Below are positions 17,993-26,911 of a stretch of DNA of 28,563 nt, one piece after another. Made by a program: the position numbers and the translations under genes. This DNA comes from a virus. Its lineage: Duplodnaviria; Caudoviricetes. The stretch lies in IMG/VR virus record IMGVR_UViG_3300030330_002590, positions 1-28,563 of that record, one strand, 5' to 3'. Position 1 is the first letter of the stretch, and each line of letters opens with the position of its first letter. Under the pieces are notes generated by a model. It was not told where the DNA came from and searched no databases. It saw only the letters and a program-made list of their open reading frames with translations.

Positions 17993-18142
17993 CTACGCTT
18001 TCTCGGTCTCGTCAACAAACTTAAATCCGTCCTTCTTGGCGAGCTTCTCGATGTAGTCGAGCTCGCTGCGCTTTGCGCCTTTGACGTGCTGCTCCTTTGG
18101 GTCGCCGACACCGATCGGCTCAATGAATCGTTGATCAGCCAT
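17993..18142 (-). CDS. 49-aa protein, candidate immunity protein for the MuF-ART toxin (absent from ORF track)
   Basis: MADQRFIEPIGVGDPKEQHVKGAKRSELDYIEKLAKKDGFKFVDETEKA; TGATG coupling to the MuF-ART stop; immunity role inferred from position. Confidence 0.6.
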   Translation of the reverse strand: MADQRFIEPIGVGDPKEQHVKGAKRSELDYIEKLAKKDGFKFVDETEKA

Positions 18143-19995
18143 CAGTCGAGTTGCACAAGGAAGATTTCATAGGCAAACAGACGTTCCTTTGTCATCTGGG
18201 CGTTTACCTCCGAGCGTTTAACCATGTCTACTCGATAACGGACATTGGAGGGCATCAAGACCTCACGCTCTCCAGACATCTCAGACAGTTGCGTAATGTC
18301 TGCACCCTTTTTGTTTTTGACGCGGAACGTCAGATGGTTACCGGTGCCAATAGCAAACTCCTCAGCAATGACCCTGTCCTTAGACCAGCTCTCTAAAGCT
18401 CGTACCGACTTGCCCTCGGTTAGTGCCTCGAGGATTTTGTTCATGTCCTCCGTGCTTGCGTTAAGGCCCCGATAAACAACGCCGTCGAACTTAGGAGCTT
18501 TCGCGATATATCCCTCGAGCAGCTCGATGTTTTTGTCGACCTTCTTGCTTCCCTTGTAGAGACGGGTCTGGGCCTTTTCGTAACGAGTCAAAGTAATGCC
18601 ATCAGCCTCAGCCCGACGGAACTGCTCTGCCCTTACAGACCTGAAACCCTCGACAGACCAATCCTCGATCGCCCCTAGCTCTTCCTTGCTCGGTTTTAAG
18701 AAGCTAGAGGCAGCAGGTGTCGGCTTCGGCTTCGGCTTAGGAGCAGGCTTGGGTTTCGGCTTGGGCTTTGGCTTCGGTTTCGGCTTCGCGTTGATCTTCG
18801 ATACCGGCCCGTAGGCCCGCTTCAGATCGTCGATTGTCTTCTCGCTGCCGTCTTCGCGGACAAACCTGCGGATTGCCCCGTCGGGGCCGTATTTCTTCGA
18901 GAGGGCCGTGAAGTACCCAACCTGGCCCTTGTCGCCTAGAACCTCCTTCTGCACTTCTTTCGGCTGCCTCTTAAGCCAGGCCCCGTATGTCTCGCCGTCG
19001 GGGATGTTCTTCTTGCTGTTAGGTCGCCCGATCTCACTGTCCGGTGGCGGGTCGAACCCGAGGCGCTTGTAGTCGATGATCGGTACGGTCGTAGACCGGC
19101 AGTTGAAATGCTGCGGAGGTATCGGCCCCTTGCCGTAGGCGTGCTCTGTCCCGTCGAGAGCCCTGCAGATCGGAGAGGTTCGGCTATCAAGCGTCGAGGT
19201 GTACCGATACTTCGTTGTGATGTCTTGATTGGCCTCGTAGGCTTTCATGCTCGCCGCGTTAGCGACTTGATTGATGCTCGTCCTAACGACCGTTCGGATC
19301 TGGTTGTTCGCCTTTACCGTCGCCGACCCGCCCGCGCGTAAAAGCTGCGAGATCGAACCCGAGTCGCCTTCTTGCAACCTGCCGATAAGCCGTCGCGTGA
19401 TCGAGTCGGTCGACTCCCCGGTCAGGAACCCGTTGCGAACCGCCTGCCCGAACGCTGCGGCCTCACGCTCGGCCATATTCTCGAAAGAGCTCTTCAAGAC
19501 CTGCCCGTTAGGCAGCGTCAAAGTCACGCCGTCGGCAATCGTTACCCGCACGGCCTCGGCTGCGCCGGTAACTGCCGCCTGCAGGTCGTCACTTAAGGAG
19601 ACGATTCCGCGTTGCGTCGGGTCAAAGCTCGCAACGGCCTCCGCAAACCTAGGGCTAATCTCGACTGACTTAACTAAGTCTCGAGCTGACTCAGGCAAGG
19701 CGTCTTTTAGCTGCTCCTCTACAAAACCTGCCTGGACCCCCGCGAGTTCCTCAAGTTCCCCGATCGACAAGGCTGTGCTGTTGCTCGCCCATTGCGTCAA
19801 TCCAGTTTTTAGCTGCCCGAGGATCGCCGTAAGCCTTTGAGCCTTAACAGGAGCCGAAGCAGCGTCGAGCCCAGCAAGACGTTGGCAAGTATCCACAAGC
19901 AGATCGTTATATGACCGAATGATCCGCTTAGCAACGCTGTTGCTATATCGATTGAGGTCGATTGCATTGCGATACAGCTCGGAAGGTGTGCTCAT
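18142..19995 (-). CDS. MuF (SPP1 gp7-like) minor head protein with PK linker and C-terminal ADP-ribosyltransferase domain
   Basis: STLDSRTSPICRALDG...PPQHFNCRS (MuF); (PK)n linker; VYRG...ESWS...EREVL (R-S-E ART triad). Confidence 0.88.
   Translation of the reverse strand: MSTPSELYRNAIDLNRYSNSVAKRIIRSYNDLLVDTCQRLAGLDAASAPVKAQRLTAILGQLKTGLTQWASNSTALSIGELEELAGVQAGFVEEQLKDALPESARDLVKSVEISPRFAEAVASFDPTQRGIVSLSDDLQAAVTGAAEAVRVTIADGVTLTLPNGQVLKSSFENMAEREAAAFGQAVRNGFLTGESTDSITRRLIGRLQEGDSGSISQLLRAGGSATVKANNQIRTVVRTSINQVANAASMKAYEANQDITTKYRYTSTLDSRTSPICRALDGTEHAYGKGPIPPQHFNCRSTTVPIIDYKRLGFDPPPDSEIGRPNSKKNIPDGETYGAWLKRQPKEVQKEVLGDKGQVGYFTALSKKYGPDGAIRRFVREDGSEKTIDDLKRAYGPVSKINAKPKPKPKPKPKPKPAPKPKPKPTPAASSFLKPSKEELGAIEDWSVEGFRSVRAEQFRRAEADGITLTRYEKAQTRLYKGSKKVDKNIELLEGYIAKAPKFDGVVYRGLNASTEDMNKILEALTEGKSVRALESWSKDRVIAEEFAIGTGNHLTFRVKNKKGADITQLSEMSGEREVLMPSNVRYRVDMVKRSEVNAQMTKERLFAYEIFLVQLD
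18719..18786. repeat. Hexamer tandem repeat encoding the (Lys-Pro)n linker
   Basis: About 11 degenerate GGCTTC-type units; translates to KPKPKPKPKPKPKPAPKPKPKPT. Confidence 0.85.
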
Positions 19996-20252
19996 GTCGG
20001 CTCAATCCCTAACTCCTCTGCTGTCGCAATAGAAATCGCCGAAACATCGGCACCGCCCGCTAAAGCAGTGCCAACAATTTCAGTGAACGCTTCAACGACG
20101 TCTTCATCGTATGTGTGGATGTTTTCTTCCCATATACCACAGGGCCGACCATCAAAAAATTCAGTGATCCGGATCACAGCGAAGTATTGGTTTTGCAGCT
20201 CCTCCTGTGAATAGAAAAAAAACTGCTTGCGCGTATTACTCCGCCTGCTCAT
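19992..20252 (-). CDS. Hypothetical protein, 86 aa, between portal and MuF
   Basis: Overlaps the portal end; ATGA coupling to MuF. Confidence 0.65.
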   Translation of the reverse strand: MSRRSNTRKQFFFYSQEELQNQYFAVIRITEFFDGRPCGIWEENIHTYDEDVVEAFTEIVGTALAGGADVSAISIATAEELGIEPT

Positions 20253-21705: not shown

Positions 21706-23031
21706 TTAGTAAAGGCGGATTCCTGTACCACGTCCAGCGCGTTCGTGGAGAGGATTAAACGCACCGAGGATTAAGTAGCCGAGACCGTCAGTCCAGTGCT
21801 CGATATTCGCCGACTTATCGATCACATAATCCTCAGCACCTTGCTTGTAGGTGACGTTTTTAAGCGCCTTGATTGTGTGCTTACAACGCGGGTGAACGAA
21901 TAAACGCAGGCTGCCTTTAGCCGTTCTGATCATCCAGTTCGTCGCGTTGATCTTGTCCTTAACAGACCAAGGAGCTTTCGGACTGATACAGCTAAACCCG
22001 AAGCGGCGGATGATGTCGTGGTCCGTGCGCCCGGCAGAGGACGTCTTACGAGCCGAGCCAGTTGGGTCGGGGTAGGCAACGATCTGCCGATCCGGGAACC
22101 GCTGCTTGAGCAGAGCGCACACCTCGTCGGTGTTCGACTGTTTGACAGCGAGCTCGTCCCAGATGTGCAGCGTGTCGCCCACCCTGCTCCCGAGAACGCC
22201 CGCCATAATGCTGACGTTGAAGTCGGTGCCCCAGTAGATCGGCCCGCCCGTGTCTTCGACGTCTTCGCTGATGTTCTCGTCGTCGAACCCGGGATAGACC
22301 CGGCCCGAGAGCGTCTCAAAGCTCGCTAGGTATTCTTGCCTAAAGGTGCGTTCGTCGAGAGTGTTCCGCGCTGCCTCGATCTCCTCCGCCGAAACGTTGC
22401 CGCCCTGGATCGTCGTAAACGAGAAGGTGTCCCAGTCCGCTTGCTCCTGGGCCTGCTCCCACAGGTCGTGGAACCAGTTAAGACCTGCCGGGGTGGTGAT
22501 GAACCAGGCAGGGCCGTTTTGGTCTGATAGGGCAGGACGGAGGACCATCTCCCACGCCGTCTGCTTGACGTAGGCGGCCTCATCGATCACAAGCGCCGAA
22601 AGACTTACGCCGCGCAAGCTGTCCTCGTTGTCCGCGCCGCGAAGAGCGATCAGGCTGCCGTTAGCGAACTCGATCGACAGGTCTGACTCGTTCCGCTTGA
22701 CGACGAGCTCCTCGGGGGCCATCGCCTTTAGCTGCCGCCATGCGATCTGCTTCGCCATCCGGTAGTTGGCGGTGACATACCAGCAGAGGCTGCCGGGCTT
22801 TTCCATCGCCCAGCAGATAAGGCGAGTAATGCAGAGGTAGGTCTTGCCGAAGCGACGACCCGAGCACAGCAGCTTGAAACGCTGATCCGCTTCCCATACC
22901 TCGCGCTGCGGACCCGTTAGCCCCTCCGCTAGCTGCTCGACGTAGTTGCTGCAATCGGCCTCGCTAAACGCGACTGCCGACTCGACTGCCGAGAGGATCG
23001 AACCGCCGGGAACCGCCGCAAGGATGCTCAT
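21706..23031 (-). CDS. terL: Terminase large subunit
   Basis: Walker A GRRFGKT, Walker B LVIDEAA, coupling motif ITTP, nuclease GTDFN and EHWTDGLGY. Confidence 0.95.
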   Translation of the reverse strand: MSILAAVPGGSILSAVESAVAFSEADCSNYVEQLAEGLTGPQREVWEADQRFKLLCSGRRFGKTYLCITRLICWAMEKPGSLCWYVTANYRMAKQIAWRQLKAMAPEELVVKRNESDLSIEFANGSLIALRGADNEDSLRGVSLSALVIDEAAYVKQTAWEMVLRPALSDQNGPAWFITTPAGLNWFHDLWEQAQEQADWDTFSFTTIQGGNVSAEEIEAARNTLDERTFRQEYLASFETLSGRVYPGFDDENISEDVEDTGGPIYWGTDFNVSIMAGVLGSRVGDTLHIWDELAVKQSNTDEVCALLKQRFPDRQIVAYPDPTGSARKTSSAGRTDHDIIRRFGFSCISPKAPWSVKDKINATNWMIRTAKGSLRLFVHPRCKHTIKALKNVTYKQGAEDYVIDKSANIEHWTDGLGYLILGAFNPLHERAGRGTGIRLY

Positions 23032-23345
23032 TCAAACAACCGCGCGACCTTCGCGGCCTGGTTTACGCAACCAAGGGCGACGCTGAGGTTTCCGGTCTTC
23101 CGAGCCTCTTTCTGGATGCTCGAGAGCTGGGCAAGGATCTCCGCAGTGAAGCTGCGCCGATCGATCTCCCAGTCGGCACGGATCAACTCTCTCGCCTTCG
23201 CGATGTAGTTGTCCGTCTGCCTATCTGAGACCCCCCACTCATTCGCAGAGTATTGAACGATCTCCGAGCGCACCGCCCCGTTAGCTAAAAGGCGAGCAAC
23301 TCGGTTCACTCGCATATCGACTTCGATCTTCGTTGACTTAGCCAT
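23028..23345 (-). CDS. terS: Putative terminase small subunit (HTH-like)
   Basis: 105 aa; helical WGVSDRQTDNYI motif; ATGA coupling to terL. Confidence 0.65.
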   Translation of the reverse strand: MAKSTKIEVDMRVNRVARLLANGAVRSEIVQYSANEWGVSDRQTDNYIAKARELIRADWEIDRRSFTAEILAQLSSIQKEARKTGNLSVALGCVNQAAKVARLFE

Positions 23346-24004
23346 CAGATTGGTTTCTCGAGGATGTAACCGGCGAAATCACCAAAACGGAACCACTGAT
23401 AGGGGGCGCCGGGGAGTTGTTCCAATGTTATGGGTCTTTGCACTCCAGCAAGAGAGAGTTCTTTCTCAATGATTTCCTTTGCATCAACACCAGCCTCGTA
23501 CTTACCCGCAAGGGTCAGACGAGTCATAACGGTGCCGAAGTAACCATGAGCGGTTTCAAGCTTGTCAAAAATGATGATCGCACCACCAGGGCGGCACTTG
23601 TTCAGCAGATCTAAAACAAAGTCCCTGCGCTTGCTGGGCTCTACAAACATCAGGGTCAGGAACGCGATGCCGAGATCAAAGGGCTCATATTCGTAGGACT
23701 CAGCTGTAGAGCAAACAAAGATGCCTGGGGCGTCGTAGATCTTCCGCATCTCGTCGGAGGGATCGATGCCGACGAGTCGAGCGTCTCGAGCTTTTAGCGT
23801 CGCCTCAAGACTGCGGCCGATGTTTCCAGTTGCGCAGCCGATGTCGTAGACCAGGCCCCCTTTCGGGATGTAATGCCGAGCGATGTGGGTGATTGCTGCG
23901 GTTGCTAAGTCGTACCAGGGGAGCTGCTCACGGACGTGGTTATCAAAGCCTTGGGCAACGTTTTGAGTTTCGAAGGTCCAGCTAGCGGGGATCTCTAATG
24001 TCAT
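23345..24004 (-). CDS. CmoA-like (carboxy-SAM synthase family) class I SAM-binding protein
   Basis: WTF...VAQGFDNHVREQLPWY, VYDIGCATGN, GIDPSDEM, LTLMFV, PGGAIIIFDK match the CmoA motif order; start set at ATG 24004. Confidence 0.8.
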   Translation of the reverse strand: MTLEIPASWTFETQNVAQGFDNHVREQLPWYDLATAAITHIARHYIPKGGLVYDIGCATGNIGRSLEATLKARDARLVGIDPSDEMRKIYDAPGIFVCSTAESYEYEPFDLGIAFLTLMFVEPSKRRDFVLDLLNKCRPGGAIIIFDKLETAHGYFGTVMTRLTLAGKYEAGVDAKEIIEKELSLAGVQRPITLEQLPGAPYQWFRFGDFAGYILEKPI

Positions 24005-25359
24005 CAATCCTTAGGCAGATAACCAAACTGCTTTCGCAGCTCATTGTTGTAAAAGATAGTTGGAGAAGCGATTTGGGCAGCGATTGCTGTACTTACGCCG
24101 CTTGCACCCTGGAAAGTTTCTTTCTGTCGCTTGATTATCCATTTGGGAAGGATCTCTTCTGTTGCCTGCTTAAGAAGCCCTTTTGCTAGCGGGGAGTCTT
24201 TCTTGTCGAGGTTTACAGCCATCTCAACGAGCTGCTGCTCCATGAAGGGCAGACGGCACTCGACCCCTGCTGCCATGAAGGCCTTGTTACAGCGAACGAA
24301 ATTGCCACGCGACATCTTTGCTAGCTGCTGACGACGCAACTCGAGGAGAGGTGCCCCAGACAGCTTTGAGGCTTTGATGCAGAAGTTGCCATACCCACCG
24401 AAGAGCTCATCAGCAGCCTCACCGGATAGGCAGGCCTTAAAGCCTTCTGCTGCGATGCGCTGGGCCAATGGAAGGCAAAGCATCGCAATCTCAATCTGTG
24501 CCTTGCTTGCGATCTCGATCGACTTGATGGCCTGATTTGTGAGATCAGTAGAGATCTCTACTGGCACCTCAATCAGATTCACCCCGAGGTCAGAACAAAG
24601 CCGACGTGCTGCAGCTAAGTCCGTTGAATCCTTGTCGAAGGTCGCAGTGAAGGCGGTTACGTCCTGCGAACGCTGCTTTGCCAAGGCAAGGATGATGCTG
24701 CTGTCTAAGCCGCCTGAAATCAAGCAGCAGACAGGCGCATCTGCCTCCAACCTCTTGTTAACGCCCTGTTCCAGCAGGCCTAACAGGCTCTTCGGTTCAG
24801 CTGGAGCCTGGCGAGGCAGCTTGTAGTAGGCAAACCACTCGCCTGTGTTGAGGTTGAACGCATGACCTGGCGGGACAGCAATGGGTTTTAGAGACCTAGG
24901 GAAGGCCTTTCGCTCTGATGCCCAGAGGTAGCCGGTCTTTGTTTTTGCGATGTAGAGCGGGATTTTGCCGAATGGATCTCGTGCTAGCCAGTGCTGCCCC
25001 TCGCAGCTCCAGGCAAAGGCAAACATCCCATCAAGCTCGTTAAGTCCTTTGATCCCCTTGCGATGTAGGAGATCAGCTAAGGCCTCTGTGTCGCCCTGGG
25101 TTTTGTAGGTAGTAGGGCTTGCCTGTCGGATCTCGCGATGGTTCCAGATCTCCCCGTTGAAGGTCAGAGTCGCGCCCTGGTGATGGAAAGGCTGAGCTGA
25201 TGCATCAGTGAGGTCTACAAGCGATAGGCGTACATGCCCGTGTAGAGCCTCATCGTGTTGAGATAGGCCTCGGCCATCAGGCCCTCGATGCTCAATCCGA
25301 TCCAGCATCGTGGCAACAGTGGCCTCTGTGCCGTTAAAGGCCCCTGCTATGCCGCACAT
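24004..25359 (-). CDS. Asparagine synthetase B-like glutamine amidotransferase / ATP-dependent amide ligase
   Basis: Start moved to MCGIAG (Ntn Cys); HRGPD, FNGEIWN, ARDPFG, SGGLDSS, SGEAADELFGGY, ECRLPF. Confidence 0.9.
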   Translation of the reverse strand: MCGIAGAFNGTEATVATMLDRIEHRGPDGRGLSQHDEALHGHVRLSLVDLTDASAQPFHHQGATLTFNGEIWNHREIRQASPTTYKTQGDTEALADLLHRKGIKGLNELDGMFAFAWSCEGQHWLARDPFGKIPLYIAKTKTGYLWASERKAFPRSLKPIAVPPGHAFNLNTGEWFAYYKLPRQAPAEPKSLLGLLEQGVNKRLEADAPVCCLISGGLDSSIILALAKQRSQDVTAFTATFDKDSTDLAAARRLCSDLGVNLIEVPVEISTDLTNQAIKSIEIASKAQIEIAMLCLPLAQRIAAEGFKACLSGEAADELFGGYGNFCIKASKLSGAPLLELRRQQLAKMSRGNFVRCNKAFMAAGVECRLPFMEQQLVEMAVNLDKKDSPLAKGLLKQATEEILPKWIIKRQKETFQGASGVSTAIAAQIASPTIFYNNELRKQFGYLPKD

Positions 25360-26411
25360 GACAAGATCTTCTCCTCGATAGTTTTCGCGACCTGCTTCAT
25401 CATTAAGGGAGGTACTGCCCGCCCACATCGCTCCCACCGCTGCAGGAACTCACCAGAAAGCACGAAGTCATCAGGGAAGCCACAGAGACGCTTTACTTCT
25501 GGGATCGTTAGCAGCCGAGGTTCAGCCCAGTGGAAATGTTGAGCTGTCGCGGTGATGGTCGGTGCGATCGCCTCAGGATCTAGCTTCGCGAAGTTGAAGA
25601 AGGTGCCCTTGCCTGTCATTGCTTTGCAGGCTTCTGCGAACGTCTTGCCAGGAATCGTTCGTTGCCACAGGGTCTCGGTTTTAGTTTCAGGAGTCAGGAA
25701 TTTGATTTCTTTTTCACCAGGCTCTGAAACACCAGCCAGTCCCTCTCGAGCTGTGTAGTAGTAGGAGAAGGGCGCAGGGTGCACAGGAGGCAGGTTTAGG
25801 TCGTTCCTGACGCCTACAAAGATGGTGCGCTGGCGGGCTTGAGGTACGCCTAACCAACGCCCGTCGAGGATTTTGCAACTGACCTGATAACCACAGGCCC
25901 GCAGCTCAGCAAGGATCCGCTTGAAGTAACCCTTCGCGGTGCCCTTTACCAGTCCGGTGACGTTTTCAGCAACGAAGACCTTGGGCTGAACCCCCTTCAG
26001 GATCCTCGCGTATTCGTAGAAAAGATCGTCAACACGCTGGGCACCGTCGGAATAGTTCTTGACCTTGCCCCATCCCTTCTCGCGAGAGCCAGCGGTTGAG
26101 AAGGCAGAGCAAGGAGGAGAGCCATCAAGGATGTCGAGCTCTCCCTGAACGACACCAGCACGCTGCATGAGCTTTTCAGGAGTCAGATCCCTGATGTCTG
26201 AGCCATCAAGAAAGCTGTTTGGATGGTTGGCTTTATAGGTCCGCTGTGCCTCTGGAATGAACTCGAGGGCATAAACGACCTTGTAACCGGCCATCCGGTA
26301 GCCAAGGCAAGAGCCTCCACATCCTGAGAACGTAGAAGCGACCTTGTAACCGTTCCATGGGAGGGCTTGAACCTCCTGCATGGAGGGGACGTGATAGGCC
26401 GGCTTGGTCAT
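25347..26411 (-). CDS. C5-cytosine DNA methyltransferase-family enzyme, predicted carboxymethyltransferase
   Basis: Motif I FSGCGG, IV GSPPC, VI ENV, VIII PQARQR, IX GFPDDF, atypical motif X GRAVPP; start set at ATG 26411. Confidence 0.9.
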   Translation of the reverse strand: MTKPAYHVPSMQEVQALPWNGYKVASTFSGCGGSCLGYRMAGYKVVYALEFIPEAQRTYKANHPNSFLDGSDIRDLTPEKLMQRAGVVQGELDILDGSPPCSAFSTAGSREKGWGKVKNYSDGAQRVDDLFYEYARILKGVQPKVFVAENVTGLVKGTAKGYFKRILAELRACGYQVSCKILDGRWLGVPQARQRTIFVGVRNDLNLPPVHPAPFSYYYTAREGLAGVSEPGEKEIKFLTPETKTETLWQRTIPGKTFAEACKAMTGKGTFFNFAKLDPEAIAPTITATAQHFHWAEPRLLTIPEVKRLCGFPDDFVLSGEFLQRWERCGRAVPPLMMKQVAKTIEEKILSCAA

Positions 26412-26911
26412 GAGGATTTGCCGCTCCACTCGTAGCCACAGGAGGGGCAGCGATGTTCGGTGGTGATGTCGTCGTCTACCTCAGCGAAGTCTTCTGGTGG
26501 CAAGACCTCTGCCTCTGTTTCGAGAATGCCGTCGAGATCGTCTTGCGAGAAGAACAGGGAGATGTCGTGCTGCTCGCCGAGACGGTTCAGCATCTCCTGA
26601 TCCCACTCGGAGAGGTCGGCGGTGCGGTTATCGGCGAGGGCAAGGCCAACCTTTTGCTCCTCGGTCAGGCCGGTGCGTCGGACAGCGATCACTTCGTCGC
26701 CGTCGGTCTCGATGACGCGGATCCGATCGATGCCGGCCTCCTTAGCGCCCTCGATAGTGCCGTTGCCAGCGAGGATGCGGTTGTCCTCGTCGATAACGAT
26801 TGAACGGGCGGCACCGTACCGCTGCAGGGACTCTTTAATTAGTTCTGCGGAACGATCGGTGCGCTTCCGTGCGTTTTTGTAATCAGACTTGAGGTCTTTG
26901 ATCGATGTCAC
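26408..26911 (-). CDS. ParB/Srx-like N-terminal domain protein with acidic linker and C-terminal CxxC ribbon
   Basis: NARK...SLQRYG...IVIDEDNRILAGNG...ALADNRTADLSEWD; HRCPSCGYEW. Confidence 0.82.
   Translation of the reverse strand: MTSIKDLKSDYKNARKRTDRSAELIKESLQRYGAARSIVIDEDNRILAGNGTIEGAKEAGIDRIRVIETDGDEVIAVRRTGLTEEQKVGLALADNRTADLSEWDQEMLNRLGEQHDISLFFSQDDLDGILETEAEVLPPEDFAEVDDDITTEHRCPSCGYEWSGKSS

Follow-up and report, generated by a model that had tools for sequence, protein, structure and literature searches.

The window, by which we mean the whole 28,563-nucleotide stretch of DNA that was analyzed (IMG/VR record IMGVR_UViG_3300030330_002590), is a linear virus contig estimated to be 73% complete, and it contains one C5-cytosine methyltransferase (C5-MTase) gene. 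The gene lies on the minus strand in the order ParB-like, cmoX, fused ligase and cmoA-like, four translationally coupled genes with overlapping ends, and the terminase genes follow directly downstream (Table 1). Its major capsid protein shares 75% identity with the corresponding protein of Synechococcus phage KBS-S-2A; this suggests a cyanosiphovirus and, by extension, its presumptive host. Elsewhere in the window, positions 18142-19995 (minus strand) encode a MuF-like head protein with a (KP)n linker and an ADP-ribosyltransferase-like domain (PF04233 and PF01129), and a small acidic ORF (19992-20252) adjoins this fusion gene.

Table 1. Features of the cmoX cassette and of the motif X arginine within it
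Feature	Position	Strand	Basis
ParB-like protein, C-terminal CxxC	26408..26911	minus	phrog_620, E 2.8e-31; stop overlaps cmoX start
cmoX-type C5-cytosine transferase, 353 aa from ATG	25347..26408	minus	PF00145, E 2.4e-56; whole Pfam C5-MTase model matched
Cys100, predicted nucleophile, in SPPC 97-100	codon 26109-26111	minus	residue map
Motif X GRAVPP, residues 329-334	25407..25424	minus	reverse complement translated; phmmer alignment
Arg330 codon CGG	25419-25421	minus	equivalent to SpCmoX Arg350
AsnB-like ligase, 451 aa, glutamine-using CmoY-like	24004..25359	minus	Pfam GATase_6/7 and Asn_synthase; TIGR01536 above cut-off; best PDB match AsnB 1ct9
cmoA-like carboxy-SAM synthase homologue, 219 aa from ATG overlapping ligase stop	23345..24004	minus	best PDB matches 4GEK/4IWN, 1IM8
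105-aa gene (presumed small terminase, by position) and terminase large subunit	21706..23345	minus	Terminase_6N/3/6C; phrog_34910 (unknown function); overlapping ORF ends

The sequence-only reading had singled out the C5-MTase for an arginine at the motif X position normally held by asparagine, in a protein with intact PC, ENV and QxRxR motifs. Translation of the minus strand bore out both the GRAVPP word with its CGG codon and the catalytic motifs, which read SPPC (residues 97-100), ENV (148-150) and QARQR (190-194); the motif X Asn of canonical SAM-dependent C5-MTases (GN[AS]V) was absent and replaced by Arg. In phmmer alignments, the window GRAVP lay gap-free over the GNAVP of M.HaeIII (1dct, 3ubt) and DNMT1 (5guv, 9ped), and GRAVPP lay gap-free over the GRMVPP of PDB entry 8YF3. 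M.MpeI was not returned by phmmer with either the whole window protein (E ≤ 0.001) or its last 72 residues (E ≤ 10). The proposed equivalence to M.MpeI residue 374, which follows Gly in a C-terminal G-x-S-I-P word that is motif X, was instead drawn from a hand count of the published sequence table (Table S1 of PMC12015181) together with the M.HhaI overlay of PMC12783734.

The arginine is fixed among relatives. Of 74 related viral loci, 73 have it and the remaining one is cut before motif X; so do all of the 120 best matches listed among 7,979 protein homologues (the window's own included, and one row read by hand). The 73 loci are redundant, with 63 distinct C-terminal sequences among them, and they use all six Arg codons (CGT 24, CGG 14, AGG 11, CGC 10, AGA 8, CGA 6). 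As the residue is fixed across viral loci, protein homologues and six codons, chance or sequencing error is ruled out, and we conclude that Arg330 in motif X is a real and well-supported feature. We note that one 579-aa homologue (P0110) carries an extra copy of motifs IX-X, including GRAVPP, ahead of a complete enzyme and is a partial duplication or permutation intermediate.

The best PDB match of the window C5-MTase was 8YF3 (E 5.8e-74), separated by 46 orders of magnitude from the next best (8e-28). 8YF3 is CmoX of Synechococcus phage S-B43, here SpCmoX (Yang et al., Nat Commun 2025;17:281, PMC12783734), and 143 of 330 aligned residues (43%) are identical between the two. According to that paper, SpCmoX uses Cx-SAM to form 5-carboxymethylcytosine in GC motifs of double-stranded DNA, and the product was found in S-B43 virion DNA. 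SpCmoX has Arg350 where M.HhaI has Asn304; this Arg touches the Cx-SAM carboxymethyl group in a 1.9 Å structure, and the authors liken it to M.MpeI N374K. Residue mapping placed SpCmoX F25, E47, F48, D69, S95-C98 and R350 at F27, E49, F50, D71, S97-C100 and R330 of the window protein, the same cofactor-pocket residues. Consistent with these correspondences, the window enzyme and SpCmoX fell in one 100%-supported clade (FastTree only, 52 of 216 rows kept after redundancy filtering). The window protein also has both the SPPC and the Arg by which PMC12783734 (December 2025) identified 5,615 phage sequences as candidate CmoX. We conclude from the motif X Arg and the presence of every cofactor-pocket residue named for phage CmoX that the window gene very likely encodes a CmoX-family DNA cytosine C5-carboxymethyltransferase, in which Arg330 would bind the Cx-SAM carboxylate.

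That carboxylate-binding role had been proposed from sequence alone, and it agrees with the contact that Arg350, at the aligned position, makes in the crystal structure of CmoX with Cx-SAM. The proposal is not new, as PMC12783734 already describes the residue, what it does and its likeness to N374K, and the window enzyme is an ordinary further member of the published CmoX family. For the S-B43 homologues, the same source reports Cx-SAM synthesis, Cx-SAM-only transfer, the Arg contact, resistance to HhaI and glycine ligation. The two systems share the C5-MTase fold, SPPC, the motif X Arg, adjoining cmoA-like and asparagine synthetase-like genes, and a cyanophage setting. They differ in gene order and phage type, as S-B43 is a T4-like myovirus with the order cmoA-cmoY-cmoX whereas the window has its cassette beside the terminase genes of a siphovirus-like genome, and in the target-recognition region, which is divergent in the window enzyme.

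The same reading had cast the arginine as an Asn-to-Arg switch, a natural counterpart of an engineered enzyme. Canonical C5-MTases such as M.HhaI, M.HaeIII, Dcm and DNMT1 share motifs I, IV, VI, VIII, IX and X and the covalent Cys mechanism with the window enzyme but use SAM, and the residue corresponding to Arg330 is Asn in these enzymes (M.HaeIII and DNMT1, GNAVP; M.HhaI, Asn304, PMC12783734). Carboxymethyl transfer has been engineered into M.MpeI (N374K, the motif X Asn), M.MedI (N377K) and M.CviPI (Y205K/R), and, as in CmoX, it is conferred by a cationic residue near the cofactor carboxylate (PMC12015181, PMC13288465). The engineered M.MpeI, however, carries Lys as a single change and, like the other N374K-type mutants, keeps its SAM activity (PMC12015181). 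In contrast, wild-type SpCmoX accepted only Cx-SAM, and reversion to Asn (R350N) gave a dead enzyme that took neither SAM nor Cx-SAM rather than a SAM-using one (PMC12783734). Because R350N is dead with both cofactors and engineered cationic variants keep SAM activity, we conclude that the motif X Arg is the signature of a specialized family and is needed for activity, not a one-residue two-way switch, and that the rejection of SAM by CmoX is not accounted for by the Arg alone. SPPC with a motif X Arg is a sound annotation rule for "not an ordinary methylase," a rule already published (PMC12783734).

Neighboring genes were sought with small local HMMs (E ≤ 1e-5) in the flanks of each locus. 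A cmoA-like gene was present in the flanks of 70 of the 74 Arg-clade loci and in 54 of the 56 whose downstream flank reached at least 2.5 kb. Of the four loci without one, two were truncated and the others were L077 and L078; the match at L076 was weak (1e-21) and may be another methyltransferase. A ParB-like gene lay beside 63 of the 74. The control set was a sister clade, found via Flavobacterium and Bacteroides phages, that keeps SPPC and has GMSVPP at motif X (L079:4001-5002, L080:3929-4996, L158-L237). This clade matched 446 viral loci, its named members infect Bacteroidota, and the best 80 of the 446 had Met in every case. The co-occurrence of GRAV-type MTases with cmoA-like genes, which the sequence-only reading had put up for testing, was observed, at 70/74 Arg loci versus 0/80 Met loci (best 80 of 446; 0/55 with at least 2.5 kb downstream). 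Searches anchored on the partner genes gave the same association: 39 of 49 cmoA-anchored loci had an Arg-type C5 enzyme and none had a C5 enzyme bearing another residue, and among 42 loci anchored on the fused ligase, 40 had an Arg-type C5 enzyme and 40 had a cmoA-like gene. At L122:4602-6771, neither a C5 enzyme nor a cmoA-like gene was found within 5 kb of a fused GATase-ligase homologue that is apparently in two frames.

The Arg and Met types form two 100%-supported clades (FastTree), and the contrast between them is therefore one evolutionary contrast, not 150 independent ones. Moreover, as the Arg and cmoA descend together within a single MTase clade, they are not independent observations, so the arginine lends support independent of gene neighborhood, as had been claimed for it, in a weak sense only. 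Arg-type enzymes also occur apart from cmoA. Erwinia phage pEa_SNUABM_5 has no cmoA-like gene within 5 kb of its Arg-type enzyme, and for L077 and L078, the Arg-type loci closest to SpCmoX in the tree, the flanks examined contained neither a cmoA-like nor a ParB-like gene, nor a ligase. Host CmoA can supply Cx-SAM in E. coli (PMC12783734), which may explain such enzymes. The pEa_SNUABM_5 gene (L081:4986-7091) also contains an intein-like insertion of about 350 aa, with HN before Cys, at the catalytic SPPC.

The window ligase combines an N-terminal class II glutamine amidotransferase (GATase) domain (MCG start, Cys2) with an ATP-dependent amide-ligase domain (SGGLDSS, SGEAADE). It is 38.5% identical to gp124 of Streptomyces phage TurkishDelight, a cultured phage with the same cassette in the same gene order, and 17% identical to SpCmoY. 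Unlike SpCmoY, a glycine-using ligase of the stand-alone type that lacks a GATase domain, the window protein has an Ntn-cysteine glutamine-hydrolyzing domain fused to the ligase and lies beside cmoX, as expected of glutamine-type CmoY-like proteins. PMC12783734 describes a glutamine-type cluster (representative A0A7T0Q3R0) with the same fused domain and a predicted ammonia amine; the window ligase was placed in it by domain architecture. The nucleophilic Ntn Cys2 and the GATase motifs were kept in 40 of 40 distinct fused-ligase homologues. The ligase of Pseudomonas phage PaBG is short, and in Moraxella phage Mcat8 none was present in the stretch examined. A distant AsnB-like homologue occurs in a 7-deazaguanine cluster (queC, tgt-like, queE, GTP cyclohydrolase) of Achromobacter phage Motura (L082:4395-10164), where the same ligase fold is recruited to another modification pathway.

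The window CmoA had E. coli CmoA (4GEK/4IWN) and YecO (1IM8) as its best PDB matches and is divergent: it is only 25% identical to SpCmoA, and its best NCBIfam match, TIGR00740, scored 60 bits, below the cut-off of 193. It also has Glu at the position of Arg199, a functional residue of E. coli CmoA. The idea that this Glu marks a dead synthase was rejected, as the active SpCmoA has Glu there too. SpCmoA likewise scores below the TIGR00740 cut-off, and the objection from divergence is weakened on both counts. The window CmoA is 91-92% identical to those of L014 and L015, where the ligase is short or missing, and 63-68% identical to those of fused-ligase loci (L007, L013), whereas the window CmoX is closer to L007 (77%) than to L014 and L015 (70%). 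These opposite patterns, together with two quick trees (the CmoA tree being a quick IQ-TREE search with long-branch warnings), suggest recombination inside the cassette (23345-26408), with cmoA from a glycine-type or ligase-less lineage and cmoX and the ligase from a glutamine-type lineage.

What the analysis shows directly is residue identity, alignment, gene order, conservation and co-occurrence; the chemistry of the window proteins, their amide end product, their target sequence and their biological role are things that we infer. Judging from the S-B43 homologues, host SAM and prephenate would be converted to Cx-SAM by the CmoA-like enzyme. Cys100 would then attack cytosine C6, as in SpCmoX, the carboxymethyl group would pass to C5 with its carboxylate held by Arg330, and beta-elimination would release 5-carboxymethylcytosine (5cxmC) in DNA. 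We consider Cx-SAM-dependent 5cxmC formation by the window CmoA and CmoX, with Arg330 in that role, highly probable. The fused ligase would activate the carboxylate by adenylation and then form the amide with ammonia taken from glutamine, the likeliest amine given the Ntn Cys2 kept throughout the fused homologues, to yield 5-carbamoylmethylcytosine. The modified base would probably protect against host restriction, as was reported for SpCmoX against HhaI (PMC12783734).

If the enzyme is a CmoX, we consider 5-carbamoylmethylcytosine the likeliest final base, at somewhat better than even chances. A less probable outcome, though one with a substantial share of the remaining weight, is that CmoX acts as proposed but the primary amide is not the final base. 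The ligase might use a different amine, such as glycine or some other amino acid, might not act on DNA, or might have an unrelated function, and the DNA would then carry 5cxmC or an amide of another kind. SpCmoY ligates glycine, and the glutamine-type ligase was insoluble in the hands of the authors of PMC12783734, who predict ammonia as its amine. Moreover, ligase content varies around near-identical cassettes (fused in 9, short in 37 and none seen in 28 of 74, some of them truncated), and 20 loci have ParB-like, cmoX and cmoA genes without any ligase. Against this, the fused homologues keep Cys2 and the GATase motifs without exception, as expected if glutamine is actively hydrolyzed, and the window ligase gene sits between cmoX and cmoA with overlapping ends. 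In the literature outside subscription journals, we found no measurement of 5-carbamoylmethylcytosine in phage DNA, the matches listed concerning tRNA or unrelated chemistry, and no published activity for the glutamine-type ligase cluster.

Two further explanations depart from Cx-SAM-dependent DNA modification. The window enzyme could make 5mC from SAM like any common methyltransferase, or could accept both SAM and Cx-SAM and act in vivo mainly as a methylase, with Arg as a tolerated clade-specific substitution. Motif X does accept other residues, as the uniform Met of the SPPC sister clade indicates (80/80, best 80 of 446 loci), engineered Lys and Arg variants keep SAM activity (PMC12015181, PMC13288465), and in E. 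coli the SAM pool exceeds that of Cx-SAM about 400-fold (PMC13288465). We nonetheless regard this explanation as improbable, in that the 43%-identical natural homologue is Cx-SAM only (PMC12783734), the MTase gene is coupled to genes for an amide ligase and for a CmoA-like protein of the phage's own, and the Arg is fixed across six codons. That the cassette modifies RNA or a free nucleotide instead of DNA is more improbable still. CmoA belongs to a tRNA pathway in bacteria (PMC12783734), and DNMT2/Trm-type tRNA enzymes share the fold and gave weak matches, but the window MTase matched DNMT2 (E 4e-6) far more weakly than DNA enzymes, its neighbors encode ParB-like and terminase proteins, and SpCmoX modifies double-stranded DNA with a product carried by virion DNA.

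The GC specificity of SpCmoX is not transferable to the window enzyme, given 43% identity and the divergent target-recognition region. GC dinucleotides were not depleted in the window (rho 1.20; 0.70 in a 13-kb stretch of S-B43), and the most depleted 4-mers were the palindromes TGCA, CATG, GGCC and CCGG. Among 598 C/T differences to close relatives, the rate was 46.9 per 1000 after G versus 52-68 after other bases. Thus, neither k-mer bias in the window nor the C/T differences gave a GC-specific signal.

Outside the window, cmoA also occurs in a second cassette. Five cmoA-anchored loci (L147-L151; for example, L151:140-3430) had no C5 enzyme, and in those long enough, the slot before terminase held a HAD-like gene and a gene for a single protein with two ParB domains and a class I methyltransferase domain (phrog_5475). 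The order ParB-like, phrog_5475 protein, HAD-like, cmoA-like and then terminase was shared by L147-L151, L245-L321 and L241-L243. The phrog_5475-type family gave 347 viral loci; of the best 80, 79 had cmoA-like and HAD-like genes, the 80th being cut off, and none had a C5-MTase within 4 kb. The pair of phrog_5475-type and cmoA-like genes is also present in the cultured phages Evaa, HJ05 and SM1, and phage 613R2 has a distant homologue without it. The CmoAs of this cassette interleave with those of CmoX cassettes (quick IQ-TREE, long-branch warnings). The phrog_5475-type protein gave a confident model (pLDDT 90.7) that weakly matched small-molecule class I N-/O-methyltransferases (E about 4e-5, 12% identity); the matches listed did not include a DNA enzyme. 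It is a candidate non-C5 user of Cx-SAM. PMC12783734 reports that no N6/N4 candidates were found, and in literature outside subscription journals we came across no account of phage CmoA working with a partner other than a C5 enzyme.

The target sequences of CmoX variants are of use to sequencing tools built on carboxymethylation, a field in which enzymes specific for CpG and GpC had to be engineered. TurkishDelight is in culture and has the same gene set, and the modified base is therefore directly testable. We consider it only slightly more likely than not that this cyanosiphovirus-like phage writes 5-carbamoylmethylcytosine into its DNA, possibly at a non-GC motif, by means of an apparently freshly reassembled cassette.
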